A DNA stretch of 64,000 nt from an uncultured virus (IMG/VR IMGVR_UViG_3300020046_001970) (taxonomy: Duplodnaviria > Heunggongvirae > Uroviricota > Caudoviricetes), in IMG/VR virus record IMGVR_UViG_3300020046_001970; one strand, given 5' to 3'. Position numbers and translations under genes: made by a program. The notes under the pieces were generated by a model. The model was not told the origin of the DNA, searched no databases, and saw only the letters and a program-made list of their open reading frames with translations. Every line of letters starts with the position of its first letter. Position 1 is the first letter of the stretch. Shown one piece after another: positions 4,015-51,788 of the stretch.

Positions 4015-4019
4015 GTTAA

Positions 4020-4161: not shown

Positions 4162-4176
4162 CTCCTTGAGGTAGTT

Positions 4177-4519: not shown

Positions 4520-4535
4520 CGAGTGTGTTTACTTT

Positions 4536-4696: not shown

Positions 4697-4768
4697 GCGG
4701 GTGTAACTCAGTGGTAGAGTGCTGCCTTCCCAAGGCAGTTGTCGAGGGTTCGACCCCCTTCGCCCGCT
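4697..4768 (+). tRNA. tRNA-Gly(CCC)
   Basis: CTGCC-TTCCCAA-GGCAG; close paralogue of the Gly(GCC) gene. Confidence 0.95.
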
Positions 4769-4786
4769 CGAATGAAACAGGAACCC

Positions 4787-4981
4787 ATGAAGACACCAGA
4801 CCCTCAACGGTACGAAAAGTTTAAGTCCAGACTCGACTGGTGGTTCACCCTTTCGAGGCATGCTTCAATCATCATCGTGGTGCTAGGTACCCTATACATA
4901 GCTCACGCTTTGGCCGATGGCCGGTTGGAAGTGATCAGGCTTACGAGGGAAAATCAACAACTACGCGAAAAGTGTCACTGA
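4787..4981 (+). CDS. small membrane protein
   Basis: AGGA RBS, hydrophobic segment IIIVVLGTLYIAHALA. Confidence 0.55.
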   Translation: MKTPDPQRYEKFKSRLDWWFTLSRHASIIIVVLGTLYIAHALADGRLEVIRLTRENQQLREKCH

Positions 4982-4986
4982 TACCT

Positions 4987-5058
4987 GTCGAGATGGCTGA
5001 ATGGTAAAGCGTGGAGCTGCAACCTCCATTTTCATCGGTTCGATTCCGATTCTCGACT
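4987..5058 (+). tRNA. tRNA-Cys(GCA)
   Basis: GTCGAGA/TCTCGAC, TGGAG-CTGCAAC-CTCCA, U73. Confidence 0.93.
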
Positions 5059-5064
5059 CTCTTT

Positions 5065-5138
5065 GCCCTTGTGGTCTAACGGATTAAGGCACGACACTTC
5101 TAATGTCGAAGATGGGAGTTCGATTCTCTCCAAGGGTG
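5065..5138 (+). tRNA. tRNA-Arg(TCT)
   Basis: CGACA-CTTCTAA-TGTCG. Confidence 0.93.
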
Positions 5139-5160
5139 CTAGTTGGTTTCTTTTATGTTT

Positions 5161-5236
5161 ACCCTTGTAGCTCAACAGACAGAGCAGGTGGCTTCGAACC
5201 ACAAGGTTGTAGGTGCAATTCCTACCAAGGGTGCCA
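5161..5236 (+). tRNA. tRNA-Arg(TCG)
   Basis: ACCCTTG/CAAGGGT, CTTCGAA loop, encoded CCA. Confidence 0.9.
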
Positions 5237-28869: not shown

Positions 28870-30090
28870 ATGCTTGAAGTTGAGGTCAGAGGGTTTCAAT
28901 CGATAGAGCATGTAAAGCTCCAGATTGATGGATTTACCGCACTAACGGGTAGGTCTAACATAGGTAAGAGTGCGTTCGTGAGGGCTATGAAAGTGGCCCT
29001 CACGAACTCAGGTGGAGTTGCCTTTGTTCGACACGCTATCGATTGCGCAAGAGCGCTAAGAGGAGCCAAAACCTGTAAGTGTCAATCCTCTGTTCATATC
29101 GTAGGTGAAGGCTTCGACTTACTGTGGGAAAAGGGGGATGCCGTCAACCGGTATGTGTTCAATGGTAACACGTACGATAAACCGGGAGCTGGTACCCCAG
29201 ATTTCCTTATGTCTAGTGGGTTTGCGCCTGTGAAGATAGGGGGTAACTCCGTACTGATTCAGGTGTCGGACCAATTTTACCCCATCTTCATGCTAGATCA
29301 GTCTGGCCCAGCAGCAGCAGAAGCTATCTCTGATGTGGCTAGCCTAGGTAGGGTAAATAGTGCTCTACGACTTGTGGAAAAAGATCGTAGAGAGGCTCTC
29401 GCTACTCAAAAGGTGCGGGATAAGGACCTAAAGGAGACCCAGGAGCACCTTACGCAATATGTCGACTTAGACCTAGGTTTGAGTTGTGTAGATGCTGTAG
29501 TTCAACAGCTCGCTACCGTAAGGGGGAAGCTCCGAGACCTAGATGAGGTGGATGGGTTCATCCTTGCCCTACAGGGCATCTCAGACAGGTTAAGGACCAT
29601 ATGGCGAATCAGCTCAGTGGTAACCCCAGAGTCCGAGTCCATCTCAGGTCCCCACCGTAGGCTGCTACAGATTCAGGAGTTTAACTCGGAGGTTGAGAAG
29701 CGAGAGGGTAGCCTAGCCAAACTCCTTCCCCTTCAGGGGCTACTGAACTCGACTAAGCTGGATGTTGACTTGACCCTTGGGCATAAGCAATTACGTCAAC
29801 TTAGTAACTGGGTACTTCGACTTAAGGACCTCAAGTTGAAGTTTGCTAGTCTTGAGCGAGCTGGAACGACTTGGCAGGGGGTAGGTGCAGCCGACCTTAA
29901 CCTCTCTGCCCTTAAGCAGCTCCAGCAATTTCAAGTGAAGTTGGCCAGCCTACAGAAGACTATTGCAGACATCGAAGCTCAAGTGTCTAACCTCGATCAA
30001 GTGGAGGTCGGGTTGCAGGCTGAGTTGGATGAAATAGGGGCGTGCCCAACCTGCCTACAAGCTATTCACGGAGAGCACCACCATGCCTAG
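28870..30090 (+). CDS. SbcC/Rad50-like ATPase, N-terminal half (Walker A to Zn hook)
   Basis: GFQS, GRSNIGKS, coiled coil, terminal CPTC. Confidence 0.85.
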   Translation: MLEVEVRGFQSIEHVKLQIDGFTALTGRSNIGKSAFVRAMKVALTNSGGVAFVRHAIDCARALRGAKTCKCQSSVHIVGEGFDLLWEKGDAVNRYVFNGNTYDKPGAGTPDFLMSSGFAPVKIGGNSVLIQVSDQFYPIFMLDQSGPAAAEAISDVASLGRVNSALRLVEKDRREALATQKVRDKDLKETQEHLTQYVDLDLGLSCVDAVVQQLATVRGKLRDLDEVDGFILALQGISDRLRTIWRISSVVTPESESISGPHRRLLQIQEFNSEVEKREGSLAKLLPLQGLLNSTKLDVDLTLGHKQLRQLSNWVLRLKDLKLKFASLERAGTTWQGVGAADLNLSALKQLQQFQVKLASLQKTIADIEAQVSNLDQVEVGLQAELDEIGACPTCLQAIHGEHHHA

Positions 30091-31060
30091 GGTTGCATTT
30101 GTATGTAGGACTGACACTCACTTGTCAGATCGAAGCCCCATTTCCTGGAAGGCCGACTACCCAATGGAGGTGTGGTCTAGCCTAGAGCAGGTAGGAGCCC
30201 TGGCTAAGAAGTGGGAAGCTAACGCTGTCCTGGATGCAGGGGATTACTTCCACGTAAAGGCTGCTACAAAGAATCCGCATCGACTAGTGGAGCGCTCTGC
30301 CAGGCTGCATCAAGGGTACTCATGTCCTACGTTCTGTGTGGAGGGTAATCACGACATAGCCTACAACAACCTTGATACGCTCGCGGATCAGCCGCTTGGG
30401 GTACTGTACGCCACGAAGGTGTTCCAGCACCTGCGGGAGGAAGTCTTCCGAGATGGGAACTTACAGGTCCGTGTGGTCGGGGTTCCCTACAGTCCGGTTC
30501 GTAAGCTGAGTGAGTTGTTGCAGATCCAAAAAAAGCCTGGAGATACTCACCTTATTGCCGTAGTTCACACGCTAGCATCGAAGACCCCTCCACCTCAAGT
30601 CGAGGACTTCTGGAACGAGCCAGTCTTCTCCTACGAGTCTCTAGTGAGTAGGAATGGGCCAGATTGCTGGGTATTTGGGCATTGGCACAAGGATCAGGGT
30701 GTCGAAGAGATCTCAGGGGTAAAGTTCGTGAACAATGGTGCCCTATCGAGAGGTGCGCTCGTTCGAGAGAACCTAACTAGGATCCCTAAAGCCTCCATCA
30801 TCGAGATCGATAACGGCAAGCTATCTGTCACGTCCTCTCTAATTTCCGTGGCGTCCGCTGAAGACGTGTTCGACTTGGAGCGAAAAGCTACTCAAGAGCG
30901 AGAACGTAAAGATATCGAGCAGTTTGTTCTACAGTTGATGATGAAGGGTGCTATTGACCCTACGTCTAGCATCGAGGAGAACATTCGAACGCTTGGTTTT
31001 GCAGATGAGGTTCGGGATGCTGCTCTACGCTACTTTGAACTTGTTGACACAGTGGGGTAA
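30083..31060 (+). CDS. SbcD/Mre11-like metallophosphoesterase nuclease
   Basis: TDTH, AGDYFH, GNHD, FGHWH. Confidence 0.88.
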   Translation: MPRVAFVCRTDTHLSDRSPISWKADYPMEVWSSLEQVGALAKKWEANAVLDAGDYFHVKAATKNPHRLVERSARLHQGYSCPTFCVEGNHDIAYNNLDTLADQPLGVLYATKVFQHLREEVFRDGNLQVRVVGVPYSPVRKLSELLQIQKKPGDTHLIAVVHTLASKTPPPQVEDFWNEPVFSYESLVSRNGPDCWVFGHWHKDQGVEEISGVKFVNNGALSRGALVRENLTRIPKASIIEIDNGKLSVTSSLISVASAEDVFDLERKATQERERKDIEQFVLQLMMKGAIDPTSSIEENIRTLGFADEVRDAALRYFELVDTVG

Positions 31061-32031: not shown

Positions 32032-32310
32032 ATGTTAGCACCCGATGAACTTGAGCGTAAAATTGCAGACCTTATCTCCAGGAACCAGCGGGTTCTTAAG
32101 CGTAAAACTGAGCTAGGGGGAGAGCTGAAGTCTAAGAAGGAGGAGCTGGCGAATCTCGTTGCAGAAATCAAAGCAGCTGGATACAACCCCAAGACTTTGG
32201 TGGAGGACCGAGACAAAACGCAGCAGGAGCTAGAGACCCTAATGCTCTCCTTTGAAAAGGGGCTGGTTGAAGCTGAGACCACAATCGAGGATTACGACAA
32301 GAAGAAGTAG
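32032..32310 (+). CDS. coiled-coil protein
   Basis: GAGGAG RBS, heptad pattern. Confidence 0.7.
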   Translation: MLAPDELERKIADLISRNQRVLKRKTELGGELKSKKEELANLVAEIKAAGYNPKTLVEDRDKTQQELETLMLSFEKGLVEAETTIEDYDKKK

Positions 32311-32314: not shown

Positions 32315-33511
32315 ATGAAATTTGCAGCAAACATTGCAGACTTACTGGAAGCCGTTAGTCTCGTTGGCATTGTCACCCCAGCGAAGGACTCTGGCTATCT
32401 ATTCAAGGTAGTGGGCGAGCGTTGCTACGTCTACTCCAGTGATAGCCTGTGTGTGGCAAGAGCTGAGTTCGCTGTAAGCTCTGACGCGGATGGGGAGTTT
32501 ATCTACCCCGTTGCGAACATCGACGCCTTGCGTTTCCTCGGTAAGCATACCGTTAGGTTTGAGACCGTGGAGGAGGAGGGGAAGTTCGTTGTACGCTACC
32601 AAGCGTCGAATGGGGCCAAGTCTGAGCGCACCACAAGGAACCCTAAGTCTCTATCCACTTGCGACCAGGAGCTGCAAAAAGCAGAGGAGGCTTACACTGT
32701 CCCAGCCAAGGTGCTCCAAAAAGCCCTTGTACTCAGCAAGCCCTTCATGGGTAAGGACGCCCCACAGGAGAAGTTCAGGTCCATACGGTTGCATACAGAC
32801 CTGGGTGACGGATACCTTTGCGCCTCAGATGGGCAGAAGGCCTCCTTCTTTTGGTCTGAGGCCTTTCAGGGTAAGGCCTTCTCCGTCCACCAGCTCCACC
32901 TAGACAACCTGATAGGGTTTCTGGCAAAGAGTCCTGGGGAGATTCAGGTCCTCTTTGGGGCCCAGTTTACCTTTGTTCGAAACACGAAAGGTCAAGTGTT
33001 TGGCTGGCCAAAGTACGCAAATGCGGATGGTATTTTCAGCACTTACGCCCTAGATGTCGACTACTTTGTTCTTGGGGTTGATCGGCAGCAACTGTACGGG
33101 ACTCTTCAGTATCTGAAAAAAGAGCTGGAATCCAATTACGAGAAGGTGCGGATAGTCTACTCTCACGAGCAATGTAGCCTTGAGTTTGTGATTGCAGATG
33201 GGTCCTCTAAGGTCAAGAGCCCACCTACAGCCGTGAGGTTAAAGGCAAAACCGGACGGTGAGGTTTGGGCGTTGCCCGAAAGTTGGTCTTTCGATATCAG
33301 TTTAGACCATCTCATGTCCTTGGTTAAGGATAACCTCAGCCCTGAAGTGGAGCTGCGAGTGTGGTGGTGCCAAGTAGCTGAAGCTCGAAAACCAACTGGG
33401 GTTTTTCGCACTATAGATGAGTTTCGATTGGACTCCAATGGAGAGTCAGTCCCTGACTCGGAAGGTTCCGTGCTATGTCGAGTCATACGATTCATGTCCT
33501 CCCGAATGTAG
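32315..33511 (+). CDS. putative DnaN-like sliding clamp
   Basis: about 400 aa, three alpha/beta repeats, LCASDG motif, clamp-loader genes nearby. Confidence 0.5.
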   Translation: MKFAANIADLLEAVSLVGIVTPAKDSGYLFKVVGERCYVYSSDSLCVARAEFAVSSDADGEFIYPVANIDALRFLGKHTVRFETVEEEGKFVVRYQASNGAKSERTTRNPKSLSTCDQELQKAEEAYTVPAKVLQKALVLSKPFMGKDAPQEKFRSIRLHTDLGDGYLCASDGQKASFFWSEAFQGKAFSVHQLHLDNLIGFLAKSPGEIQVLFGAQFTFVRNTKGQVFGWPKYANADGIFSTYALDVDYFVLGVDRQQLYGTLQYLKKELESNYEKVRIVYSHEQCSLEFVIADGSSKVKSPPTAVRLKAKPDGEVWALPESWSFDISLDHLMSLVKDNLSPEVELRVWWCQVAEARKPTGVFRTIDEFRLDSNGESVPDSEGSVLCRVIRFMSSRM

Positions 33512-34173
33512 ACGCTCTAACCTTGCGTGTTCGTGCCCTACAGGACAAGGCGTTACGAGCTAAGACCATTCGAGACCAGCTGGTCACTACCGCGACTGCC
33601 AGAGAACTTGAGATCCTAGAGCTGAAAAAGAAGCAGGACATCCTAGTGAAGGTGTCCGAGCTGTACCGAACCCTTATGGATCGACTCGTCCTGCATCAGG
33701 TGAAGATGACAGAGGACATCGTTACAGAGGGGTTGAAGGCTATCTTTTTCGATCAAGACCTCAAGTTTAAGGCCGAAGTAACGTCCAAGTACAACAAGAT
33801 AAGCGTTGAGTTCCTTATCTGTATCGGGGATCCGGACAATGGTGGGTTTGTAGGTGCCCCATTGGAGTCCTTTGGGGGTGGTCCTGCTACGGTTGCCAGT
33901 CTCATTCTCCGTATCTTGACGCTTTTACGTCTCAAACGACAGAAGTTACTGTTACTAGATGAGACGCTTGCTGCGATATCGGATGAGTACATAGAGCCGA
34001 CTGCTCAGTTCCTATCTAAGCTTGCAGGTGCAAGTGGATTGAATCTACTCTTAATTGCACACAAAGCTGCTTGGTCGGACTATGCCAATAGCAGCTACCA
34101 CGGGGATCTTAAGGCTGAGGTTGGCTCTAAGCCGAAACTCCACCTCAAAAAAGTACGAGGCCCTACGTGTTAA
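33475..34173 (+). CDS. SbcC/Rad50-like ATPase, C-terminal half
   Basis: coiled coil, signature-like SFGGG, Walker B LLLLDE, LIAH. Confidence 0.82.
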   Translation: MSSHTIHVLPNVDALTLRVRALQDKALRAKTIRDQLVTTATARELEILELKKKQDILVKVSELYRTLMDRLVLHQVKMTEDIVTEGLKAIFFDQDLKFKAEVTSKYNKISVEFLICIGDPDNGGFVGAPLESFGGGPATVASLILRILTLLRLKRQKLLLLDETLAAISDEYIEPTAQFLSKLAGASGLNLLLIAHKAAWSDYANSSYHGDLKAEVGSKPKLHLKKVRGPTC

Positions 34174-35426: not shown

Positions 35427-36111
35427 TACGTTTACAGCTCACACTCACGAGCTACTCCTTACCTCAGAGCCTGTTCTGGAGTTTCTTTGGGGTAGAGGAG
35501 TCTCTAACGATCAGATTGAATCGTTCAATCTCGGGTACTTTGATGGAGAGTTACCTCCAGCTCAGTACTCCAGCGAGTTCCTAGATTGGGCTAAGGGTGG
35601 CCTAAAGCTCAGGCAGACCCTCGTTTTCCCTTTGACGAATGCGCTAGGCAGTGTAAGAGGAGTTCAAGTACGAGCCTTGGACCGTAGCAAGTACTCTGAC
35701 TTCTTCTTGACTAGCTCTGAGCCGGTACTATTCGGACTGGGGCAGGCAATGCCCCATATTTGGAAGGACGAGTCTACGATAGTCGTAGAGGGGGTGTTCG
35801 ATTTATTCCCTGTCCAAAGAGTCAACCCCACGGTTGTATCCACCTTAACTGCAAAAGTCAGTGAGTCTTTTGCTCGCACGCTAAAACGAGTCGCTCACAC
35901 CATTTACCCGTTCTACGATTCGGACGCGAAGGGTAGACATGGTGTAGAGGCTATACGCACCAAGTACGGTAGAGACCTTACTGTACGCCCTATCGAATAC
36001 CCACTAGGCCTAAAGCTAATTGATGGTACCCCCATCAAAGATCCTGGTAACCTGTGGGAAGCCTTGGGTGATGAACGTTTCGCTCAATTTTTGACCCAAC
36101 AACTGGAGTAA
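35416..36111 (+). CDS. DnaG-type primase catalytic core without Zn-binding domain
   Basis: FLWGRGV..FNLGY, VVEGVFD, YDSDAKG, KDPG. Confidence 0.85.
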   Translation: MWVDTFTAHTHELLLTSEPVLEFLWGRGVSNDQIESFNLGYFDGELPPAQYSSEFLDWAKGGLKLRQTLVFPLTNALGSVRGVQVRALDRSKYSDFFLTSSEPVLFGLGQAMPHIWKDESTIVVEGVFDLFPVQRVNPTVVSTLTAKVSESFARTLKRVAHTIYPFYDSDAKGRHGVEAIRTKYGRDLTVRPIEYPLGLKLIDGTPIKDPGNLWEALGDERFAQFLTQQLE

Positions 36112-36114
36112 GTT

Positions 36115-36600
36115 ATGCAAGTGTACGCTGAGGCTGAGGCTGTTCAGGCCATCGCAAACGACCTAATCGCCACCTACCATCCAACCCTGGCTACGGCCAA
36201 GTTCAGGTTCCTCTTCAAGGAGAAGGCCTCGAAGAAGGGTGGTAAGGTTCAACCTGGGTCAGTGAAAAAACTCTCTGACCAGATGCTCTTCCTGATTGAC
36301 GCCAACTTCCTAATGGAGATCCCTCTTGAGACATGGAATGAGATGGATGCCACGAAGCGAGTAGCTCTCATCGACCACCTACTGGAGCGCTGCGTAGGTG
36401 AGGAGGATGAAGATGGCGGTGGGGATATGAAGTGGTCTGTTCGAGAGCCAGACGTAAATGAGTTTGCTACAATCCTTCGTAGGTATGGGGCTTGGCACGA
36501 TGACCTTGCCGCCTTTGTGTCTGTTGGGCAATCCATTGACTTGGGGTACCTAACTGAAGTAGAGTCAAGTACTGAGACCGTGCAAACCACCACAAACTAA
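36115..36600 (+). CDS. putative phage metallopeptidase-like protein
   Basis: ALIDHLLERC..PDVNEFATILRRYGAW. Confidence 0.6.
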   Translation: MQVYAEAEAVQAIANDLIATYHPTLATAKFRFLFKEKASKKGGKVQPGSVKKLSDQMLFLIDANFLMEIPLETWNEMDATKRVALIDHLLERCVGEEDEDGGGDMKWSVREPDVNEFATILRRYGAWHDDLAAFVSVGQSIDLGYLTEVESSTETVQTTTN

Positions 36601-36623
36601 AGTTTGCTGGGTAAGCTCGCTAA

Positions 36624-36659
36624 GACAGGAGAGGGAAAGACTACTTCCCCTCTCCTGTC
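36624..36659 (+). terminator. hairpin, possible terminator
   Basis: GACAGGAGAGGGAA/TTCCCCTCTCCTGTC; weak U tract. Confidence 0.45.
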
Positions 36660-36691
36660 GTCTATGGTAGTAAAGACTTGAGGGGTGAATT

Positions 36692-38143
36692 GTGTGGGAT
36701 ACTCGATATCGTCCACTAGTATTCTCTGATGTGCTGGGCCAGCAAGGCACAGTGCAGGTGCTTAGAGCTAGGTTAGCCAATGATACAGCTTTGGATACGA
36801 GTTACCTCTTCTCCGGGGCTTCTGGTCAGGGGAAAACCACTCTTGGTCGTATCTTAGCTCGGGCGTTACTTTGCACCCACCTGGACAAGTCTCTCCCAGA
36901 CCCCTGCAATGCTTGCCCTAATTGCGTAGCTTGCCTCGAAGACACCTCGTCTGCGTTTGTCGAGAAAGACGCTGCGAACCAGGGCACCACTGAGCACATT
37001 CGAAAAATTGTCGAGGACCTACCCTTCGCTGTGTTCGGCGCCAGAAAGAGGGTTTACCTCTTTGATGAGTGTCATCGCATGAGTCTAGCTGCCCAAGACG
37101 GCCTATTGAAGCCTATTGAGGAGAAGCAGCTTGTAAGTATTCTTTGCACTACCGAGCCTGAAAAGGTTCGACACGCCATTCGTGCTAGGTGTGAAGAGTA
37201 TGCGATTCGGAGAATCACCAGAGAAGACATCCTAGGTAGGATGGTGTCTATCCTTCAATCGGAGAAGGTGGACTACGAGGAAGATGCAGTTCTTACCGTG
37301 ATCGACTTCGCTGGGGGACACGTTCGAGATGTGTTGAATCGTCTAGAGATGCTAGCGCAAGTTGGGGCAATCACTGTAAGCAGTGCTCGGGCCCATTTGA
37401 ACTTGTCAGCAGTCACTACCTACTACAAGATCCTACTTAGCTTGGTCTCCAATACGCAAGAAGCTCTGGATCTACTAGACTCGCTAGGTGATACAAGTAC
37501 TCCGGACGAGGTTGCTTCAGGTTTGACCGAAGCCGCAATGAACTCCTATCGTTTGGCTATGGGGATGTGTGCTAACTTTAGGTACGCTGACAAGAATCTT
37601 GGCTCACGGGTATTCGAAAGTTATGGTGGTAGTGGGTTAATTGAGTTGGTTAGGGTGCTCACCTCCACGAAGTACTCGACACAAAATGGGCTTGTTTGCG
37701 ACCTAGTGATCCTCGCTGATAAGTTGAGTTCGACCGCTCAAGCGCCTGTCCAGGTTCAGATTCAGAGTCCAATCCCGGCCCCTCCTCAGGTCCAGGCGGC
37801 CCCTCAGGTCACTGTTCCTGTTGCTGCCCCTCAGACCCCTACCCCTGCTCCTCAGGTCACTGCTCCTACTCCTGCTCCCGCCCCTCAGGTCCAGGCTCCT
37901 GTCACCCAGGATAAAGCCCCTACTCTGAGCTTCGTACCTCAACCCCCCTTAGGGGATTTAGGGTCTAACGACGTTTGCGCATTGACAGAAGTAGATTCTA
38001 AGGCAATGCCTACCGAGAAACCTGGAGTGGGTCGGATACGAAAACCACTCATCTTTGAAAAGCGAGGTGACAACAATGCCCCTATCCCTCCTAGTACATG
38101 GAGAAAGCACTTTGAGGCTCTTTGGGGCAGGAGACCTAAGTGA
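36692..38143 (+). CDS. dnaX: DNA polymerase III gamma/tau-like clamp-loader ATPase
   Basis: RYRPLVFSDVLGQ, GQGKTT, PCNACPNC, FDECH, GGHVRD; Pro/Gln-rich linker. Confidence 0.9.
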   Translation: MWDTRYRPLVFSDVLGQQGTVQVLRARLANDTALDTSYLFSGASGQGKTTLGRILARALLCTHLDKSLPDPCNACPNCVACLEDTSSAFVEKDAANQGTTEHIRKIVEDLPFAVFGARKRVYLFDECHRMSLAAQDGLLKPIEEKQLVSILCTTEPEKVRHAIRARCEEYAIRRITREDILGRMVSILQSEKVDYEEDAVLTVIDFAGGHVRDVLNRLEMLAQVGAITVSSARAHLNLSAVTTYYKILLSLVSNTQEALDLLDSLGDTSTPDEVASGLTEAAMNSYRLAMGMCANFRYADKNLGSRVFESYGGSGLIELVRVLTSTKYSTQNGLVCDLVILADKLSSTAQAPVQVQIQSPIPAPPQVQAAPQVTVPVAAPQTPTPAPQVTAPTPAPAPQVQAPVTQDKAPTLSFVPQPPLGDLGSNDVCALTEVDSKAMPTEKPGVGRIRKPLIFEKRGDNNAPIPPSTWRKHFEALWGRRPK

Positions 38144-40011
38144 CTGCTAGTCCCCTAGATGAGTGGGTTGTCATCGAGCTAAGTGCTCAAGGGGAAGAGG
38201 AGGACCCGGATACTATCCTACAGGCCATACGACGGCTCCTAAAGAGGGAGGTAGAGATTTTCCTTCCGGTGTCTATACGTACTTCCGGAGACAGTAGGGT
38301 CGTTCACAAGCTAATTGACAATTATGTCTTCGTTCGACGAACTCTACCCGATACAGCGTACCTGAGGTTGGAGGGGACACGGTATATCGACTCAGTCCTC
38401 ACTAGCAACAAGTCGACTGGCACATCAAGAAAAATTACTGGAGTGCGCAACTCTGACATAGAGAAGATGCGACGTCAGATCCATGTGGAGTGCGAACAGG
38501 GGATCAATGTTGGGGATGAGGTCCAGATTACTGGGGGCGCTTACCGCAATATTGTAGGTAAGGTGATAGAGGACATCCCAGAAACAGAGTCCGTTCAAGT
38601 TCACATTCAGCTAAGGTCAAAGGAGGCGATTGTCACACTCCCTCGATCGTTCCTAAGATTTGTCGCTAAGGGTCAGCAGCAAGCAAGCTCAGACTTTGCC
38701 CCTTTCGCCAACAAATTGACCCGCATTAGGGACTGGATTGAAGGGCTAAGGCCACTTGCTATCGTGCCCGGTAAAGTCTCACCTTTACTTGAGTGCTACG
38801 TAAGATGGCGGAGGCTAACTCAATGGTGGACCTCCCACCAGAGCCTGAAGTTCGATCCAAACCAGCTCCTACGTGGTACCAATCTCTTAGAGACTCAAAT
38901 CCTATCTAAGTTGGAGGTACTTAGGCAGCAAGTAGCACTTACGCGCAGTCGTCCTTTCTTTGAGCTTGTGGCTATTAGCAAGGGCTTAGAGCGCGCAGAC
39001 AACGTGAGGAGTAAGTTGTCCGCTACCTTAGGTAAGGTGCGGCAACTCCAGCGACTGCACCAAAGATTGGCTGCGATTAACAGTGAAGTTCGATGGCTAG
39101 AGGCTAGCCTGTTGGGTAAAGGTAGACATATGGTACAGAATGTAGTCGTAGATGGACTTAACTTGGCGTATCGAGTTTACTATGCGTACGCAGCTTCCCG
39201 AGGATATATGGCCCCTGCAACTGAGGGTACAGTCCTGGCTCAAACCTTCCTCAAGAGTCTAGCTAGCCTTAGAAAGAAGTTCGATCGCGCCAATATCTAT
39301 GTCGTGTGGGATGGCTCTTCTCAGTACCGAAGAGGGTTGTTCTCGGACTACAAGAAGGGTAGATCCTCCCCACCATGGAAAGAATCCGAGATGCAAAGTC
39401 TCAGAGAGGTTCTGTCCGGACTAAAGGTGCAACAAGTCTGTAACCCTACAGAGGAGGCGGATGACGTGATTGCTTGCCTGGTAAGAGGTCCTCTCAAAGG
39501 TCAAGCAAACGTCATTGTGTCCACAGACCGAGACTTCCTACAGCTTGTCACTCACTCCGACTTGTTGCTGGTCCCAAAGCAAGGAGCACGAGCAGAGCTT
39601 TTGTACGACCGGGATAAGGTAGTGTCGGAATTTGGCCTGGCCCCAGAGAGACTTAATCAGTACAAGGCGTTCTGTGGGGACAAATCCGACAACCTTCCTG
39701 GAGTTCCACGCGTACCGAAGAAGGTATTCGTCGACCTAATCAATACGTTCCACGACGTCGAAAGTATCTTCGCATCTAGCCTGTCCAACTTGACTGTCAA
39801 ACAGTGCGCGCAAATGCGAGGTTCCGAGGCTCAGGTGAAGTTGAACCTACACCTGGTCACGCTACGCTCTGACCTAACCTTTGAATATTTCCCTGAGTTG
39901 ACGCCAGATGAGACTGAGGGCGTACTAACGCGACATGGTGTCTCTACTACATTAGCAAGTAGTGTGAGGCGTAAGTCAGGGTTCGAAAAGGTCGGTACTT
40001 CTAACTCATAG
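38140..40011 (+). CDS. NusG/RfaH-like (NGN+KOW) domain fused to a 5'-3' exonuclease
   Basis: IFLP..LIDNYVFV, VGDEVQITGGAYRNIVGKV; then VVDGLNLAYR, YKKGR, EADDVIA, STDRDFLQL, GDKSDNLPGV. Confidence 0.85.
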   Translation: MTASPLDEWVVIELSAQGEEEDPDTILQAIRRLLKREVEIFLPVSIRTSGDSRVVHKLIDNYVFVRRTLPDTAYLRLEGTRYIDSVLTSNKSTGTSRKITGVRNSDIEKMRRQIHVECEQGINVGDEVQITGGAYRNIVGKVIEDIPETESVQVHIQLRSKEAIVTLPRSFLRFVAKGQQQASSDFAPFANKLTRIRDWIEGLRPLAIVPGKVSPLLECYVRWRRLTQWWTSHQSLKFDPNQLLRGTNLLETQILSKLEVLRQQVALTRSRPFFELVAISKGLERADNVRSKLSATLGKVRQLQRLHQRLAAINSEVRWLEASLLGKGRHMVQNVVVDGLNLAYRVYYAYAASRGYMAPATEGTVLAQTFLKSLASLRKKFDRANIYVVWDGSSQYRRGLFSDYKKGRSSPPWKESEMQSLREVLSGLKVQQVCNPTEEADDVIACLVRGPLKGQANVIVSTDRDFLQLVTHSDLLLVPKQGARAELLYDRDKVVSEFGLAPERLNQYKAFCGDKSDNLPGVPRVPKKVFVDLINTFHDVESIFASSLSNLTVKQCAQMRGSEAQVKLNLHLVTLRSDLTFEYFPELTPDETEGVLTRHGVSTTLASSVRRKSGFEKVGTSNS

Positions 40012-40158
40012 CATTCCACGTAGATTGAGGGGGTATCTGGAGATTATAGACGATTAGCTAATTTTGGTTGGATCTTTTGGGTGTGTTGTGGCAGAGTTAC
40101 CTCTAGTAGCTTTGAGTGGGTACTTTTGTGCCTTGCTCGTTACAAGAGGTCTAAAGCC

Positions 40159-40773
40159 ATGGCAGACGGGTACCTTATCCTTGTAGACCCAACTGAGTTA
40201 GCAAATCGATTCTCCACTCAACCCAAAGAATTTGAGGAGGAGGAACCTGAAGTAAGTACGAGTATGGCTCTGAGCTATGAGAGCCAGATTCAACCTCTAT
40301 TAGACCGGATCCCTAAAAGGGAGGCGGATCTCATGGAGTTGTACTACATGCAAAAGAAACGTCAGGCAGACCTTGCCGAGATCTTTGGGGTGACCCAAGC
40401 TGCAATCAGCTACAGGTTGAACCGAGGACTCCAGCGAATTAGGTTCCTGCTGTCGATCCCAACCCTCAGTGAAGATGGGTTACGTCAGGACCTCCCAGAG
40501 GTGCCATTTAAGCCGACTGACGTTAACATTCTTGTGGGTATGTGGCAAACAACTTGCCAGTCTGAAGTAGCTTCCAAGTTAGGCCTAACTCAAGGTAGAG
40601 TTAGGCATCGTTTTTTTGGGGCTGTAGTAGTCCTAGAGAAGAGGGCTGCGGAGGACCCTAAGTTCGTCCCCTACTCCAAGGTCTTCAGTTCCATTGCGAA
40701 CAAAAATTTCAACGTTTTACGCGAAGTTAAATTGCCACAATGGCAGGGACGAGGCGGAGACGGCTGTTTTTAG
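40159..40773 (+). CDS. sigma region-4-like double-HTH protein
   Basis: QADLAEIFGVTQAAISYRL and QSEVASKLGLTQGRVRHR. Confidence 0.75.
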   Translation: MADGYLILVDPTELANRFSTQPKEFEEEEPEVSTSMALSYESQIQPLLDRIPKREADLMELYYMQKKRQADLAEIFGVTQAAISYRLNRGLQRIRFLLSIPTLSEDGLRQDLPEVPFKPTDVNILVGMWQTTCQSEVASKLGLTQGRVRHRFFGAVVVLEKRAAEDPKFVPYSKVFSSIANKNFNVLREVKLPQWQGRGGDGCF

Positions 40774-40812
40774 TTGGGTTTGTGTGTCACCTAAAGACAA
40801 CCTCGAAAAGGT

Positions 40813-40840
40813 TTGACTCAGTGGTCGCGAGAGCTATACT
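40813..40840 (+). promoter_or_regulatory. sigma70-type promoter, probably leaderless transcript
   Basis: TTGACT-16 bp-TATACT, ATG six nt later (40847). Confidence 0.6.
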
Positions 40841-40846
40841 GAGCCC

Positions 40847-40960
40847 ATGTACCTGAAACATGGACTCAGTAACACGCCAGAGTATAAGTGTTGGCAGCAA
40901 ATAAAGGCTCGCTGTATGAACTCCAACCACCGAGCGCGCCTCGCGGGGCTGCCATGTTGA
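40847..40960 (+). pseudogene. 5' fragment of the interrupted HNH gene
   Basis: MYLKHGLSNTPEYKCWQQIKARCMNSNHRA matches the HG..TPE(Y/F)..W..K.RC.N unit repeated in 41662..42717. Confidence 0.88.
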
Positions 40961-41693
40961 AGCCGTTTTTCCCGTTCTACGGGTCCAAGTGGCGCGATGC
41001 AAAGCGCTACCCTGCGCCTCGCGAGATGGTCATCGAGCCTTTTGCTGGGTCGGCCGGATACGCGACATTTCACGAGCCTGCGCGCGTGATTCTGAACGAC
41101 TTCGATCCCATCCTCGTTGGAGTGTGGGACTACCTGATCCACGTCTCGCCGGCAGAGGTGCTCGCGCTCCCCGACCTCGACGTCGGGCAGAACGTGGATA
41201 GCCTTTCGCTCCCGCAGGAGGCACGATGGCTCATCGGCTTCTGGCTCAACCGTGGATCGTCGCAACCCAAGAAGACGAAAACGGCGTTTTCTGCGCGTAC
41301 CGAGCGAGCGCAACTTGTGTGGTCCCAGCGGGCGCGCGAGCGAATCGCCTCGCAGGTGGGCCGCATTCGTCACTGGGAGATCCGATACGGCGGTTACGAA
41401 TCGGTCCCGATGGCCGAAGCCACATACTTCGTTGACCCGCCGTACCTCGGCAAGGGGCGATTCTATCGCTTCCACGATGTAGACTATCCGCGCCTCGCGG
41501 CATGGTGTCGACGCATGCCAGGCGACGTCATTGCCTGCGAGAACGTCGGCGCGGACTGGCTCCCGTTCGAGCCGCTGGCCGTGATCAAAAGCACGAAGGG
41601 AACATCGGTGGAGGTCGTATTTTCGCGCCTCGCGGGGCTGGAGGTGGCGAAGTGAAGTATCATGCGAACGCCATCGGAAACGGAGAGGCGCGC
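40936..41693 (+). mobile_element. 758-bp GC-rich insertion carrying a DNA adenine methyltransferase
   Basis: removal restores the HNH frame; ends GCGCGCCTC/GAGGCGCGC inverted repeat; abrupt GC shift. Confidence 0.8.
40954..41655 (+). CDS. Dam-like (alpha class) DNA adenine methyltransferase
   Basis: FPFYGSK, IEPFAGSAG, LND, FVDPPY. Confidence 0.9.
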   Translation: MLKPFFPFYGSKWRDAKRYPAPREMVIEPFAGSAGYATFHEPARVILNDFDPILVGVWDYLIHVSPAEVLALPDLDVGQNVDSLSLPQEARWLIGFWLNRGSSQPKKTKTAFSARTERAQLVWSQRARERIASQVGRIRHWEIRYGGYESVPMAEATYFVDPPYLGKGRFYRFHDVDYPRLAAWCRRMPGDVIACENVGADWLPFEPLAVIKSTKGTSVEVVFSRLAGLEVAK

Positions 41694-42717
41694 TTACCTA
41701 GATTATGGTGGTCGTGGGGTAACGATCTTTGATGGGTGGGTTAAAGACTTCAGGGCCTTCTTGGCTCATGTTGGTCCCCGTCCTTCTGATGGTCATTCGT
41801 TGGATAGGTACCCTAACCTCAACGGTAACTATGAGCCTGGTAATGTCCGTTGGGCTACAGATAAGGAACAGAACAACAACCGTCGTCCTCACCGGAAGCA
41901 TGGTGTGAAGCTTTGTTCGAGGCCCGTTCGGACTGACGGTAAGCCTACTAACTTCAAGCACGGTGGAGTTGGGACTCCAGAATATCGGGCGTGGTCTCTG
42001 ATGAAGGACCGTTGTTTGAATCCGAAGAGTGGTAACTATCCATATTGGGGTGGTCGGGGCATCAAGATTCACGAACCATGGATCGTAGACTTTCTGGTTT
42101 TTTACCAATACATTGGTCCCCGCCCCTCGCCTCAGCACTCGCTGGATCGAATCGACAATAATGCGGATTACCAACCTGGGAATGTTCGTTGGGCCACAAA
42201 GTTGGAGCAAACAGAGAACAGGCGTCCGTGTAAGGTAGGACCTACTCACGGCAATTTTGACCACGGTTACACTGGCACTCCAGAGTTCAAGACTTGGACG
42301 AGCATCAAGACTCGATGCTTCAACGAGAAGCATGACCGTTATGTCTCCTACGGTGGAGCTGGCATCACGATGTGTCAGCGATGGAAGAGCAGTTTCCCTG
42401 CCTTCTTTGAGGACCTTGGATCAAAGCCAACCTCAGAGCACACAATCCTTCGAGAGAGTCAAGAGGGGCATTACTCTTGTGGAGGGTGTACGGAGTGTCT
42501 TGAAAAGGGCTGGAAGCTCAATGCACGTTGGGCTACACGAACCGAAGTTAACCGAAACCGCCGCCCTTCTACGAGGTCCGGTAAGCTCACCCTAGAGAAG
42601 GTGCAAGACATCCGTGCTCGTATCCTTAAGGGTGAGACGCACAAGCAACTCGCTGAAGTGTTTATGGTGGGCGTTACCTTGATTGGAAAGATAGCTAGAC
42701 GTGAAATCTGGCTTTAG
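41662..42717 (+). CDS. HNH homing-endonuclease-like protein, three tandem units plus HTH (3' part of the interrupted gene)
   Basis: repeated (Y/W)GG(R/A)G(I/V), SLDR..N..Y.PGNVRWAT; C-terminal HTH. Confidence 0.85.
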   Translation: MRTPSETERRAYLDYGGRGVTIFDGWVKDFRAFLAHVGPRPSDGHSLDRYPNLNGNYEPGNVRWATDKEQNNNRRPHRKHGVKLCSRPVRTDGKPTNFKHGGVGTPEYRAWSLMKDRCLNPKSGNYPYWGGRGIKIHEPWIVDFLVFYQYIGPRPSPQHSLDRIDNNADYQPGNVRWATKLEQTENRRPCKVGPTHGNFDHGYTGTPEFKTWTSIKTRCFNEKHDRYVSYGGAGITMCQRWKSSFPAFFEDLGSKPTSEHTILRESQEGHYSCGGCTECLEKGWKLNARWATRTEVNRNRRPSTRSGKLTLEKVQDIRARILKGETHKQLAEVFMVGVTLIGKIARREIWL

Positions 42718-42728
42718 AGGTAGCGACC

Positions 42729-42851
42729 ATGTCTACAATCTGGCGTATTGTCCACAACGTAGTTGCTCACCCCCTCTTGGAACTTCTACCCGCTCGTTGG
42801 GGGGATTCGTTTCACGATTGGACCGCCCACAAAGCGTGGGGTAAGGAGTGA
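42729..42851 (+). CDS. small hypothetical protein (40 aa)
   Basis: GAGG RBS; MSTIWRIVHNVVAHPLLE..FHDWTA. Confidence 0.5.
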   Translation: MSTIWRIVHNVVAHPLLELLPARWGDSFHDWTAHKAWGKE

Positions 42852-42905
42852 GAGGGTCAGAGGTGTTGAGGTTCCTTTTATGCTATTCTTGTTAAGAGGG
42901 ACCCT

Positions 42906-43811
42906 GTGCCACTTATCTCAAACTTAAGGTACCACGACTACCAGTTTGAATTACCTGTTTCCAGTGGGAAATGGAAGTGGGTAACTCGACTTGACGTGTC
43001 GCAGTCCAGTCCAGCCTTCTACATTAGGGATGTGATCTCTCCCTACGGGTTGCTGCGAGACTCGATTCCTATCCCTGGGGAAGTTGTCCAGTCGATGGCT
43101 CAGTCCATCCAAGACCTTAAGGACAACTTCAAACCGCATATCCTTGTAGGACCTCCAACCTCCTTGACCTTTTTGGTCGATGAAGGTCGAGGGACTTCTT
43201 TGCCCCAGACTCTCATTCTCACCAATGATGGAGTTTACGGTTCGCTACTTGGGATGAGCTTGACGCCGTCAGCTGCTTACGTGAGAGTGACTCCAGGTAG
43301 TGTGGGTAACCTAGCGTTCAACGCGTCAGGTCAGATCTCTGTGGACGTAAATTCCACCAACCTACTATCAGCGAACTCTCCTTATGCCGAGAGCATCACA
43401 ATTCAGGACTCAACGGCAACAAATAGTCCTCGTAATCTTCCGATTACCATTGTGGTTAGACCCAAAGCTACAATCCGGGTAACGCCAAGCCTACTCTTTA
43501 CCTTTACGGTAGCTAAGCCGCTTACTGGAGACTTCCCAGCTATCCCAGCGCAAACCTTTAACGTGGCCAATATCGGCCCTACCGGGTCGGTACTAGAGTA
43601 CACGGTCAAGAAACTCTTAGGTCTCTCGGATTGGCTACCGAGCTTCCTACCCTCTTCTGGTACTCTCACTACCGTAACCTCTGATACAGTAACGGTAACG
43701 GTAGCTCCAGCGAGTACGCTACTAGTTGGCACCTATACCGAGAAGTTGCGCGTTGCTGGGTATAGCTCAAATTCGTACATCGACGTTGAGATTCGTCTTG
43801 TGATTGTGTGA
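42906..43811 (+). CDS. putative virion protein with Ig/BACON-like domains
   Basis: two beta-rich repeats, S/T/V/P-rich, WL....SGTL. Confidence 0.6.
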   Translation: MPLISNLRYHDYQFELPVSSGKWKWVTRLDVSQSSPAFYIRDVISPYGLLRDSIPIPGEVVQSMAQSIQDLKDNFKPHILVGPPTSLTFLVDEGRGTSLPQTLILTNDGVYGSLLGMSLTPSAAYVRVTPGSVGNLAFNASGQISVDVNSTNLLSANSPYAESITIQDSTATNSPRNLPITIVVRPKATIRVTPSLLFTFTVAKPLTGDFPAIPAQTFNVANIGPTGSVLEYTVKKLLGLSDWLPSFLPSSGTLTTVTSDTVTVTVAPASTLLVGTYTEKLRVAGYSSNSYIDVEIRLVIV

Positions 43812-48428: not shown

Positions 48429-51400
48429 ATGGCTCAAGATAAGAAACAGGTTGGGATTGCCAACCTCATCCGTAGTGCTGGGCACAGATCAAAGTCAACA
48501 GATAAGAACAGCAAAGCGGGGCTTCTCACGACCACCAAAAGTGGTCGTGAGATTCGTATTTTCGACATTCTGACCTACATTGAAGCCCCTTGGGGGCTCA
48601 ATATGACGTTGTACCCAGTACAACGGTTCATCGTCAAGCTCTACTACAACCTACCCCTAGATGAGGTCTTACCTGAGAACGTGAATCGTCAGATTCGGGT
48701 CTCAGACATGTTCAACAGCAAGATACTCTACACCTTCACGGAGAAGGAGTACCTCCACTACCTATTCAACGAGGGTCGCTGCAACATCAAAGAGCAGGAC
48801 CACATGCGGAGGCAACTTACACTTCCGATAGGTAGAAGAGCCGGGAAATGCAAGTCCCCTAAATCGTTAGTGATTACGTCAAATGGTCTCCTAGAGCTTT
48901 CAGAGTTAGGGGATGTTAATGGGCCTGAGTGGCAACCTCTTGCTATCACGGTCGCACAAGCTGGTGGACGTCAAGCGCAATCCTCGCACTTCTACAATAA
49001 CGGAGTAAGTCAAACCCGTAAGATTAAGCTACGCTGTGGTATTGAGGACGAAAGCACCCCCAACCATAGAGTAATGGTGCTGAGTAAAGATGGAGTTGTT
49101 GATTGGAAGTGCATGGGAGATGTCCAAGTAGGGGACTATGTAGCGGTCAATAGACAAACGGATCTTTGGCCGACTGCTATGTTTCCGGTACCTAAGGCTA
49201 AGTCGTGGACTCTCCCAGACGTAGTTGACGAGGACTTTGGATTATTTCTAGGGTACTTGGTAGGAGATGGTACTTGGGGGCAGGCTTCGTACTTAGAGCT
49301 TACCGGTTTGGAAGCTCAGGTTCGTAGATTTGCTCAAATCGCATCAAAAGTTTTAGGGCACCCTGGACGTTGCTACCCAGCAATAGGATCTGAAAATGGC
49401 TGGCGTTGGAGGTTTGATGGTGTGGGCGTAGGGGTTAACGGACCAGCTAGAGAAGTTAGAGGTGTCTTGCATGACCTTGGATTTAACCTCGACGTAGAAC
49501 GAGACAAGAAACGAGTCCCATTCTCTATTCGAAGATCCCCTAAGTCCGTTGTTTGTGCTTTCCTTCGTGGGCTATTTGAGACGGATGGATGTTCGGAAGA
49601 CTCTGGTCGGATTATTACTCTTTCTTCGTCTAGCTTTGAACTCGCCCGTGAAGTCCAACTGTTGTTGTTGAATTTAGGGGTGGTTACGCATATTGGATCG
49701 AAGTGGAACGCTAAGTACAAAAAGCACTACGCCATCCTTTCAATAAGGGGGGCGGAGTCTCGGGCAATTTTCTGCGAGCAGATCGGGTTTGACTCTGACA
49801 GAAAACAAGGACCCCTACTAGAGAAGGTAGCTCAGCAAAAGGTAAGGGCTGACAACAAGTCAGACACCGAAGCTATACCCAACCAATTTGATTGGTTACA
49901 GTCACTACTAGGCCTTATCCCTAAGCGGAATGCTTCTGCTGGCAAACCTGGGTGGGGGCGAAGCCTTCTACGTCAAGAGTTAGGTAATGCCATCAAACCA
50001 GGGTCCTCTGAGGACCTTAGTTACCCCAGATTACGTAAGGCTCTTGTTGTAGCGAGGAACTTAGGCGCTGAGGGTCCAGTTGTAGACCACTTCGAAGAGT
50101 TGCTGCGGCTCAATTACTTTTACGACCCAATTGTCTCGATAGAGGAGGGGGAAGCTCAGGTTTACGACTTGACCGTGCCAGACGGGGAGGCGTTTGTCGC
50201 CAATGGGATGGTCAACCACAATACGACTCTCTCAGCAATTTTCGCTAGTTACGAGCTGTACCGTCTCCTTTCTCTACATGATCCGCAGGAGTACTACGGA
50301 CTCCCGAACGGAAACCGCATACAAATCATTAGCGTTGCTACCGACAAGGACCAAGCAGGGCTGTTGTTCAATGACGTGACCGCGCACATGGCTAAGTGCG
50401 AGTTCTTCAAGCCGTACATTGCCAACAACACGCTATCCTACGTTCAGTTGAGAACCCCTAGTGACATAGAAAAGTACGGACCAACCAACAGGACGACAGA
50501 CGGCAAGTTTACGTCCTTCAACGGCAAGGCTTCAATCCGCGTAACCTTCAAAGCTAGTATCTCAAAGGGCCTTCGTGGAGCTGGTAACGTAGTCATCATC
50601 CTAGACGAGATGGCTCACTTCCAGGCTAATGGGTCTAGCTCTGCGAAGGACATCTACGACGCAATCACTCCCTCCGCAGCTGCCTTCTCTCAGAAGGACT
50701 TGAACACTGGGTTGCCGATCAATGGTTCAGAGACCGAATCTGAGGCTAGGATCATCGGTATCTCCTCCCCCTTGAATAAGGCAGGTAAGTTCTACGAGCT
50801 GTTTCACCTTGGCATGAGTCGAGGGGAAGGTTCGGAGAACATGCTTGTCATTCAAGCTCCGACTTGGGAGGTGAACCCTACCGTACCTACGAGCTACTAT
50901 AGGGCAAAGTACCATGAGGACCCTACGGTTTTCATGACAGAGCATGGGGCTCTATTCTCTGACCGTGTACGAGGTTGGATCGAGCGTGAGCAGGATCTTA
51001 CGTCCTGTATACGCTCAGACCTACGCCCAAGGTCTTACGGGCCGGTCCGCTACCCGCATCAGATGGGTCTTGACGTGGGTATGGTAGGGGACGGGACGAC
51101 TGTAGCCATTACTCACTGCGAGGGTCAAAACGTCATTCTAGACTACCACGAGGCGTGGTACGCAGGAGTGTCGTGGAAGGAATCGAACCCTCACCTCACT
51201 GCCCCTCTAGTAGACTACGCCAAGATGCTAGAGACGGTAGAGCGGTTGGACTTTGATGAGATTGCTAATTGGATCGTCACGTTATCCAAGAAATTCTACC
51301 TGACGTCTGGGATCTTCGATAGGTGGAACGGGCTACCCTTAGAGCAAGCGCTGCACAAAAAGGGGCTCAAGCAATTCAAGAGTGAGTTCTTCACCCGAGA

Positions 51401-51788
51401 CGACCGAAGTCGAATGTTTCAGGCCATGAAGCTCATGTTGTTCGATCATCGTATTGTCCTGTACGATTGGCCGATAACAGCGGATGGGAAGGCTAAGCAC
51501 AGCCCCCTGATTGAAGAGCTGTTGAGTCTGCAAGCCACTCAGATGGCTAAGAACCAGATCCTAGTGGAGGCCCCCAAGATCCTTGGGGCGCACGATGACG
51601 TTTCAGATGCGTTGGTACGTGCCGTGTGGCTCTCGTTAGAGCAAGTCTCCAACCAAAAGTCTACGGCTCGACCTGAGGGAAGTAGTAGCCTCGCTCGTGG
51701 GTCGTCATTACAAGGGTACCAAGTACGCAGGGCCCGTAACCATGGGGTGTTGCTAGATCGTAACGTGCGAGGGTTACGTCGGCGATAA
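48429..51788 (+). CDS. terL: terminase large subunit with intein
   Basis: Walker A GRRAGK|TT, IILDEMAHF, GISSP, GLDVG, HDDVSDA. Confidence 0.93.
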   Translation: MAQDKKQVGIANLIRSAGHRSKSTDKNSKAGLLTTTKSGREIRIFDILTYIEAPWGLNMTLYPVQRFIVKLYYNLPLDEVLPENVNRQIRVSDMFNSKILYTFTEKEYLHYLFNEGRCNIKEQDHMRRQLTLPIGRRAGKCKSPKSLVITSNGLLELSELGDVNGPEWQPLAITVAQAGGRQAQSSHFYNNGVSQTRKIKLRCGIEDESTPNHRVMVLSKDGVVDWKCMGDVQVGDYVAVNRQTDLWPTAMFPVPKAKSWTLPDVVDEDFGLFLGYLVGDGTWGQASYLELTGLEAQVRRFAQIASKVLGHPGRCYPAIGSENGWRWRFDGVGVGVNGPAREVRGVLHDLGFNLDVERDKKRVPFSIRRSPKSVVCAFLRGLFETDGCSEDSGRIITLSSSSFELAREVQLLLLNLGVVTHIGSKWNAKYKKHYAILSIRGAESRAIFCEQIGFDSDRKQGPLLEKVAQQKVRADNKSDTEAIPNQFDWLQSLLGLIPKRNASAGKPGWGRSLLRQELGNAIKPGSSEDLSYPRLRKALVVARNLGAEGPVVDHFEELLRLNYFYDPIVSIEEGEAQVYDLTVPDGEAFVANGMVNHNTTLSAIFASYELYRLLSLHDPQEYYGLPNGNRIQIISVATDKDQAGLLFNDVTAHMAKCEFFKPYIANNTLSYVQLRTPSDIEKYGPTNRTTDGKFTSFNGKASIRVTFKASISKGLRGAGNVVIILDEMAHFQANGSSSAKDIYDAITPSAAAFSQKDLNTGLPINGSETESEARIIGISSPLNKAGKFYELFHLGMSRGEGSENMLVIQAPTWEVNPTVPTSYYRAKYHEDPTVFMTEHGALFSDRVRGWIEREQDLTSCIRSDLRPRSYGPVRYPHQMGLDVGMVGDGTTVAITHCEGQNVILDYHEAWYAGVSWKESNPHLTAPLVDYAKMLETVERLDFDEIANWIVTLSKKFYLTSGIFDRWNGLPLEQALHKKGLKQFKSEFFTRDDRSRMFQAMKLMLFDHRIVLYDWPITADGKAKHSPLIEELLSLQATQMAKNQILVEAPKILGAHDDVSDALVRAVWLSLEQVSNQKSTARPEGSSSLARGSSLQGYQVRRARNHGVLLDRNVRGLRRR
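48849..50222 (+). mobile_element. LAGLIDADG intein (458 aa) in the terminase Walker A
   Basis: starts Cys, TPNH, FLGYLVGDG, FLRGLFETDG, VYDLTV..NGMVNHN|T. Confidence 0.95.

Follow-up and report, generated by a model that had tools for sequence, protein, structure and literature searches.

In a 64,000-nucleotide stretch of DNA from an uncultured virus of the Caudoviricetes (IMG/VR record IMGVR_UViG_3300020046_001970; the whole stretch is hereafter the window), a single stop-free frame (38140..40011, + strand) encodes a 623-residue protein in which a NusG-type NGN-KOW unit is followed by a helical arm and a PolI-type 5' (flap) nuclease. An earlier reading of the letters by a model, to which we refer as the original prediction, had described this fusion and suggested that a nuclease tethered to RNA polymerase could clear R-loops or replication-transcription conflicts, act as a torpedo terminator, or couple late transcription to replication. 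The gene starts at a GTG that overlaps the stop codon of dnaX (GTGA) and lies behind a Shine-Dalgarno-like AGGAG (38129..38133, +), with a duplex energy of -7.4 kcal/mol as computed for the same site in locus L003. On the same strand follow the NGN domain (residues 8-118; 38161..38493), the KOW domain (119-175; 38494..38664), which is the best-conserved portion of the fusion, the arm or linker (186-326; 38695..39117), an internal ribosome-binding site (AAGGT) with an in-frame ATG for Met331 (39119..39132; ATG at 39130), which is the predicted start of a free 293-residue nuclease, and the 5'-3' exo/flap endonuclease domain itself (39130..40011). Mean pairwise identity among relatives is 0.67 for KOW, 0.57 for the nuclease, 0.53 for NGN and 0.25 for the linker.

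Several lines of comparison agree on the domains. Pfam matches to NusG (residues 29-111, E 7e-4) and KOW (124-155, E 9e-4) fall under the cut-off, and the NusG portion is also matched by TIGR00922 (E 6e-9) and by the solved NusG 2lq8 (E 1e-7). Both nuclease domains score above the cut-off (5_3_exonuc_N, PF02739, residues 335-499, E 7e-27; 5_3_exonuc, PF01367, residues 501-583, E 2e-15). An AlphaFold model (mean predicted local distance difference test score 81.6, predicted template-modelling score 0.54) is confident for NGN, KOW and nuclease and less so for the helical linker; Foldseek matched it to the NusG chains 9a56_B and 6gov_G and to bacterial flap nucleases. KOW is modelled as a beta-barrel, and no RfaH profile matched at E 0.01. 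Judged by profiles and model, the N-terminal part belongs to the NusG/Spt5 family, with an NGN fold and then KOW, and the C-terminal part is a PolI-type 5' nuclease (FEN) in both domains and fold; no beta-CASP or Xrn nuclease fold was found in the fusion by Pfam or fold comparison. The domain order of the original prediction and its placing of the nuclease from Met331 onwards are thus borne out.

By sequence, the nuclease has its active-site residues in place. D338, E439, D441, D442, D463, D465, D514, D517, Y404 and K405 are present in 92 of 92 locus clusters, position 391 (D391 here) is D or E in all of them, and the region also holds R397 and R408. We take the conserved acidic and basic residues to serve as metal ligands and in the arch. 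The nine acidic positions are intact in 93 of 98 fused proteins, three others being truncated, which indicates that the active-site acids are intact in the fusion family. In the NGN core, W9, P43, L58, Y62 and F64 are found in 45-46 of 46 rows, and F41 is also nearly invariant; which NGN residues touch polymerase is in part our assumption. According to one source, the clamp helices and gate loop of polymerase are contacted by every NGN domain (PMC7819879), and another describes this contact as made through a hydrophobic patch (PMC7593976). By analogy, we infer that the NGN domain of the fusion would bind RNA polymerase.

The fusion is real and no assembly artefact, as independent contigs and records agree on the open frame; nor, given its spread among relatives (below), is it a one-off stop loss. 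The same frame is present in two IMG/VR records, and from each of the DNA runs X1, X4 and X8 one contig crosses the junction, with no indel there among the differences listed. No missed stop was thus found. In an RNA run (X15), whose library may contain DNA, most of the gene is covered by short pieces assembled from a related strain, one of them across the junction; these contigs show neither strand nor starts and carry no weight on expression. Programmed frameshifting at the junction was considered and rejected: the sole slippery-type heptamer of the gene lies at 38700, none lies at the junction, and the junction frames of re-split relatives differ (1, 1, 1 and 2).

To see how the two domains are arranged in relatives, we looked at both proteins and loci. 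Residues 1-330 of the query matched 57 proteins of 342-1091 residues, comprising 46 full fusions (the query included), one without a start, one cut short and nine with NusG and linker without nuclease; some relatives carry an automatic Joint Genome Institute label, '5'-3' exonuclease/transcription antitermination factor NusG'. Among the 150 representatives listed at 50% identity, 53 have the nuclease domain and 13 have the linker without it. Locus scans used a profile of the fused proteins and retained the best-scoring loci, giving 152 loci (73 viral, 78 metagenomic and one from GTDB). Both domains were present in 136 of them, as one gene in 101 and as two in 35, a ratio that leans to fused because the scan profile was built from fused proteins and the best scores were retained; at 90% identity, these loci form 92 clusters, 61 fused and 31 split. 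In the GTDB scan, both domains were covered in one of the best 80 loci (L076), on a contig with phage gene order whose bin label is no evidence of host. Complete records with the fusion are phages of 393-513 kilobases (kb). No cultured phage with the fusion was found in the GenBank phage collection: 162 records there match, all of them over less than 80% of the protein. The fusion is therefore clade-wide among very large uncultured phages: the domain combination that the original prediction had asked to be searched for is widespread, and its worry that relatives always encode two genes does not hold. The same type of NusG is joined elsewhere to sigma-70 (P0140), to helix-turn-helix domains (P0125 and P0131) or to tails of ~220 residues of no assigned family; this set of alternative fusions also comprises P0128, P0130, P0156, P0167 and P0172.

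Quick trees of the two conserved domains were built from 90 rows (two of the 92 clusters were too short and were dropped), and their root is not fixed. On one side of a single branch stand 26 rows in which a short NusG gene precedes a nuclease gene of its own, and on the other 60 fused and four long-tailed split rows; this branch has support in the SH-like approximate likelihood ratio test of 98 under a mixture model and 96 under LG+G4. Because all fused rows carry an arm that is absent from the more diverse split rows, the simplest reading of these trees is that a nusG-like gene and the 5'-nuclease gene beside it fused once in an ancestor. In 56 fused rows, the junction has 14 distinct lengths, every one in frame. 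As a rough neutral expectation, the last ten linker codons should have gained ~16 stops on a tree whose length is 24.6 substitutions per site, versus two re-splits found. These counts indicate that the frame across the junction is held open by selection and, since the junction is depleted of stops, suggest that attachment of the nuclease is itself selected. In ten outgroup loci (L198, L202, L204-L206, L213, L215, L220, L224 and L229), 180-790 nucleotides separate the NusG and nuclease genes, leaving room for small genes.

The linker, foreseen as helical, is modelled as helical, but it is more than a plain spacer. A profile of residues 186-326 had one other clear match among the frames of the window (E 2e-4), the N-half of a SbcC/Rad50 protein (28870..30090, +) with a Walker A motif, a helical arm of ~41-residue period and a C-terminal CxxC; residues 227-373 of this half align with the linker. 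The profile scored 7.5-39.6 bits on 16 of 16 relatives of SbcC-N, against at most 8.2 bits on 304 local shuffles and at most 15.8 on 16 reversed controls. HHalign of the linker with the SbcC-N arm gave 97% (E 7e-11), and 94% with whole alignments, and in three of five whole genomes this arm was the only second match of the fusion profile. These profile comparisons show that linker and arm of the SbcC/Rad50 N-half share ancestry, so that NusG and nuclease were joined by a copy of an arm from the phage itself. The fusion has neither the ABC ATPase head nor the zinc hook of SbcC, and the alignment stops at residue 373 of SbcC-N, before C392/C395. Autocorrelation of the SbcC-N arm shows a clear 41-residue period; that of the linker is weak (best long lags 36 and 39). 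Linkers are 102-193 residues long, clustering near 102, 138, 154 and 183, and their length does not follow that of the SbcC arm. The ESM Atlas gave no usable match for the linker. SbcC/Rad50 is divided over two genes in the window, and its N-half was found in 16 of 16 records. The probable C-half (33475..34173, +), as read from the sequence, has a short coil and motifs that we take to be the ATPase signature and Walker B; between the halves lie an SbcD-like phosphoesterase (30083-31060) and a small coiled-coil gene (32032-32310).

We next consider the start at Met331. An ATG or GTG lies at most nine codons before the first nuclease strand in 59 of 60 fused lineages, compared with 32% of 3721 control windows. 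The Met331 column holds 24 ATG, 11 GTG, one TTG and three other Val codons, and GTG makes up 11 of its 14 Val codons versus 30% elsewhere (p 3e-4). Pairing with the anti-Shine-Dalgarno core, for which we assumed the sequence, has a median energy of -4.55 kcal/mol at the internal start, close to true NusG starts (-4.45) and split-nuclease starts (-4.8), and other internal ATG or GTG codons reach -2.40. Compared with 200 synonymously recoded sets, pairing at the internal site is the stronger in 199, and 300 control codons show no excess of this kind. The lineages in these start-site statistics are not independent, and the residues flanking the internal start are not conserved. Taken together, this comparative signal indicates that a start codon and ribosome-binding site are conserved at the beginning of the nuclease, and that the gene probably gives rise to two products, the full fusion and a free nuclease. 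Of the proposal that the internal start alone might be used, the internal start thus stands, but its exclusive use sits badly with selection on the open junction.

The neighbourhood is that of replication and transcription genes. A dnaX-like clamp-loader subunit (36692..38143, +) is the fixed upstream neighbour (among loci with enough flank, in 46 of 51 that are fused and in all 27 that are split), and a conserved sigma-region-4 protein of 204 residues (40159..40773, +), 59-77% identical to 29 relatives, is the fixed downstream one (58 of 59 and 27 of 27). Terminase and portal genes lie further downstream, which confirms the predicted position between dnaX and the sigma-region-4 gene, ahead of the structural region. 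The window also encodes clamp-loader subunits, a clamp-like gene, primase, RecA, RecD2 and a RuvC-like protein besides the split SbcCD. RNA polymerase beta was found in none of 16 records (nine at least 90% complete) and beta' in none of five; as no phage RNA polymerase was found, the NusG part would act on the host enzyme. PolA was present in five of five records, with no PolB (0/5), DnaE (0/9) or RNase H (0/5). Exactly one PF02739 match occurs in each of nine records, at the fusion locus, and PolA frames in four loci (one cut by the locus edge) had no match to the nuclease profile. As the sole 5' nuclease found per genome, next to a PolA without this domain, the fused nuclease would be the natural primer remover.

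Known systems offer parallels to each part. NusG paralogues such as RfaH, LoaP, UpxY and ActX (PHROG 6386, 'transcription antiterminator') likewise carry NGN and KOW as a second copy on a mobile element, and the fusion has weak profile matches to NusG, UpxY and LoaP; unlike them, it scores under every curated cut-off, has an altered NGN motif and bears an SbcC-like arm and a nuclease. PolI 5' nuclease, T5 D15, ExoIX (Xni), mycobacterial FenA and T4 RNase H share the fold, the active-site acids and a partner PolA without the domain, whereas the nuclease of the fusion is joined at its N terminus to NusG through the arm. T5 has the same division between D15 and a Klenow-like polymerase, as given in the available part of the source (PMC3632103); a second partly available source reports D15 as essential for T5 late genes, and as cutting single- and double-stranded DNA and not single-stranded RNA (PMC12673091). 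T4 late transcription is tied to nicks, the gene 46 nuclease, the clamp and a sigma-4 mimic (PMC2988020, accessible part), and Mu C works through the beta clamp (PMC12867686, accessible part). T4 gp55/gp33/gp45 and Mu C-beta clamp resemble the present system in using host polymerase, a phage clamp and loader, a sigma-4-like protein and coupling that depends on nicks or nucleases. They differ in acting at initiation via the clamp, whereas the fusion is an elongation-factor homologue bearing a nuclease; the likeness is one of parts. In archaea, Spt5 bridges the nuclease FttA to the polymerase elongation complex (PMC11616081, in the portion available). This system and eukaryotic Spt5-Xrn2/Rat1 also place a 5'-3' nuclease at polymerase through a NusG/Spt5 protein, but non-covalently and with RNA-specific nucleases of other folds. 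SbcC/Rad50 is alike in the arm and differs in its ATPase and CxxC hook.

All parts thus come from known families, and their combination appears to be undescribed. Full-text literature searches, largely without subscription papers, gave no description of a NusG-5' nuclease fusion, in line with the original prediction. Stand-alone phage NusG is known as an annotation, from PHROG 6386 and from at least seven TIGR00922 rows in the accessible part of a huge-phage table (PMC7162821, supplement file 7); the main text of that paper does not mention NusG. Within the available text of two papers on the NusG family (PMC7819879 and PMC7593976), 'fusion' and 'fused' do not occur, and NusG does not occur in the text, supplements not included, of PMC12619734 and bioRxiv 10.1101/2025.02.27.640493.

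Of the functions proposed earlier, coupling of replication and late transcription has the best precedent; clearing of R-loops or conflicts is compatible with the findings, and an RNA torpedo is unlikely given this nuclease family. We tentatively favour a model, to which we give somewhat less than an even chance, in which the free enzyme removes primers and the polymerase-borne long form processes flaps, nicks, primer ends and hybrids, thereby tying late transcription to replication. In the manner of T5 D15, the short form starting at Met331 would work for the phage PolA by removing flaps and RNA primers. The long form would bind the clamp of the host RNA polymerase through NGN and carry the nuclease on an arm whose 141 helical residues, when extended, reach up to about 20 nm. 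Near transcription complexes on replicating phage DNA, it would then process 5' flaps, nicks, primer ends or RNA-DNA hybrids. With the phage clamp, clamp loader and sigma-region-4 protein, this may couple late transcription to replication or recombination, in the way that nicks and the clamp serve T4 and D15 is needed by T5. In addition, the arm may form dimers or bind SbcCD.

Several observations weigh against this model, beyond the lean of the locus scan to fused genes noted above. The nuclease is decayed in two fusions (P0118 and P0145), which have lost most acidic ligands and are possibly pseudo-nucleases. Where solved NusG has the motif FPGY, the family has L-[IVM]-[DE]-[NG]-Y (LIDNY in the fusion), with I, V or M at residue 59 and D or E at residue 60 in place of the F and P of solved NusG. 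NCBIfam scores are far below cut-off (35.9 vs 135.7 bits for NusG, 34.4 vs 100 for UpxY and 24.1 vs 125 for LoaP). Four of 64 lineages have re-split, and as these four long-tailed rows are not one clade (approximately unbiased test, p 5e-9), at least two events took place; the covalent NusG-nuclease link is thus dispensable in several lineages. A further 25 arm-bearing rows are without nuclease, for which a FastTree tree built on 222 NusG domains requires ~7 changes, three of them forced by strong branches, though some rows may be cut at contig ends. In a 485-kb relative (L250; LR745208.1, about 2100-5200), the order is dnaX-NusG-sigma-region-4 with no nuclease gene between, and the outgroup functions with separate genes. 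Finally, the arm stays with NusG in all four re-split loci and is longest (about 205-210 residues) in two re-split rows, from which it would have a job beyond tethering the nuclease.

This last point leads to the strongest alternative, which we regard as rather unlikely while taking it seriously: NusG plus arm would be the real unit, the arm pairing with SbcC-N or with itself and so linking host polymerase to phage SbcCD and recombination, and the nuclease would be a mildly useful passenger, with the internal start supplying the enzyme that matters. Such a role agrees with the homology of linker and SbcC arm described above and with retention of the arm in four of four re-split loci. The SbcC-N arm is modelled, at low confidence, as long unpaired helices, and the linker is slightly closer to the SbcC arm of its own genome (p 0.01), an excess that is small, ranks first in two of 15 cases and is maybe compositional. 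Against a mere passenger speaks the depletion of stops across the junction, which argues for selection on nuclease attachment, and pairing of the arms is weakened by a linker identity of 0.25 and a length that does not match the SbcC arm. This account and the favoured coupling model can both hold.

It is doubtful that the NusG part no longer binds polymerase and that NGN-KOW is instead a scaffold bringing the nuclease to the replisome in place of a clamp-binding tail. A clamp-motif-like C-terminal [ST][LM]F tail occurs in 19 of 20 outgroup nucleases and in none of 61 fused ones, KOW is under tighter constraint in fused pairs than in split ones when pairs of 30-60% nuclease identity are compared, and the gene sits within a replication operon. 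However, the tail is also absent from five of five unfused sister rows, and seven of 61 fused proteins have a Q[LF]x[LFI] tail. The NGN core residues are nearly invariant, the sigma-region-4 gene is a fixed neighbour, and related phage NusG domains are joined to sigma or helix-turn-helix domains, that is, in transcription contexts.

A neutral gene-packing fusion without joint function, or an assembly or stop-loss artefact, is very improbable. In its favour, the 26 outgroup rows already have the two genes side by side, the internal start is retained and re-splits are tolerated, but an inserted arm of 100-190 residues is not packing, the frame is kept over the whole tree, and the agreement of independent contigs refutes the artefact. 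Least credible of all is a polymerase-tethered RNA torpedo or host shut-off nuclease, digesting nascent RNA in the 5'-3' direction and displacing polymerase in the manner of Spt5-FttA or Spt5-Xrn2, since for all the strength of T5 D15-type nucleases and the bridging of FttA by Spt5 (PMC11616081, in part), the enzyme is of the PolI/FEN family and neither beta-CASP nor Xrn, T5 D15 lacks single-stranded RNA cleavage (PMC12673091, in part), and this nuclease is the sole primer-removal candidate found in these genomes.

Returning to the favoured coupling of late transcription to replication, a bolder form of it, which we consider unlikely, would have the NusG homologue on host polymerase, through its Rad50-derived arm carrying a flap nuclease and docking on the split SbcCD, make or trim the DNA breaks by which late transcription and recombination-driven replication are licensed, with the second start supplying the fork nuclease. 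If true, this polymerase-borne arm-nuclease-SbcCD device would be a categorically new coupling device of phages. To our knowledge, no transcription factor other than NusG/Spt5 is universal, and in bacteria its known partners are RNA-side machines; a covalent link of NusG to a DNA flap nuclease via a Rad50-like arm would newly join transcription to DNA processing. It would also make directly testable the old puzzle of why late transcription in a phage should require a 5' nuclease (T5 D15), and the clade offers natural variants for this: unfused ancestors, re-splits, arms of 102-193 residues and decayed nucleases.

Further features of the locus concern transcription and the region downstream. 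The C-terminal half of the sigma-region-4 protein contains a second segment that is helix-turn-helix-like. A divergent sigma-like protein with a weak region-2 match and a Cys-rich insert (L268:849-2009, +; L269:369-1523, -), seen in seven of eight further records, is by sequence a candidate partner of the sigma-region-4 gene, as a late or split sigma. A scan of 36000-43000 for sigma-70 promoters and terminators gave hits at chance level. The motif TTYYWYTTRT (42872..42881, +) lies ahead of the first gene past the sigma-region-4 gene in most relatives, an Ig-like gene, and is a candidate -10-only phage late promoter. It recurs at 5147, 5603, 56927, 59521 and 60786 (+), often 10-45 nucleotides before a start codon, and counts 10 versus 3.5 expected in the window and 17 versus 12.0 (maximum 18) in a 233-kb relative (G002). 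Between the sigma-region-4 and Ig-like genes, a variable insertion (40888-42717) holds an adenine methyltransferase-like gene and a repeat-containing HNH-like gene, the latter so labelled by sequence reading with no Pfam match; a near-identical record (L002) differs over this segment. Further downstream, the terminase large subunit (48429-51788) carries an intein/LAGLIDADG insert and is followed by a type IB topoisomerase (51813-52850).

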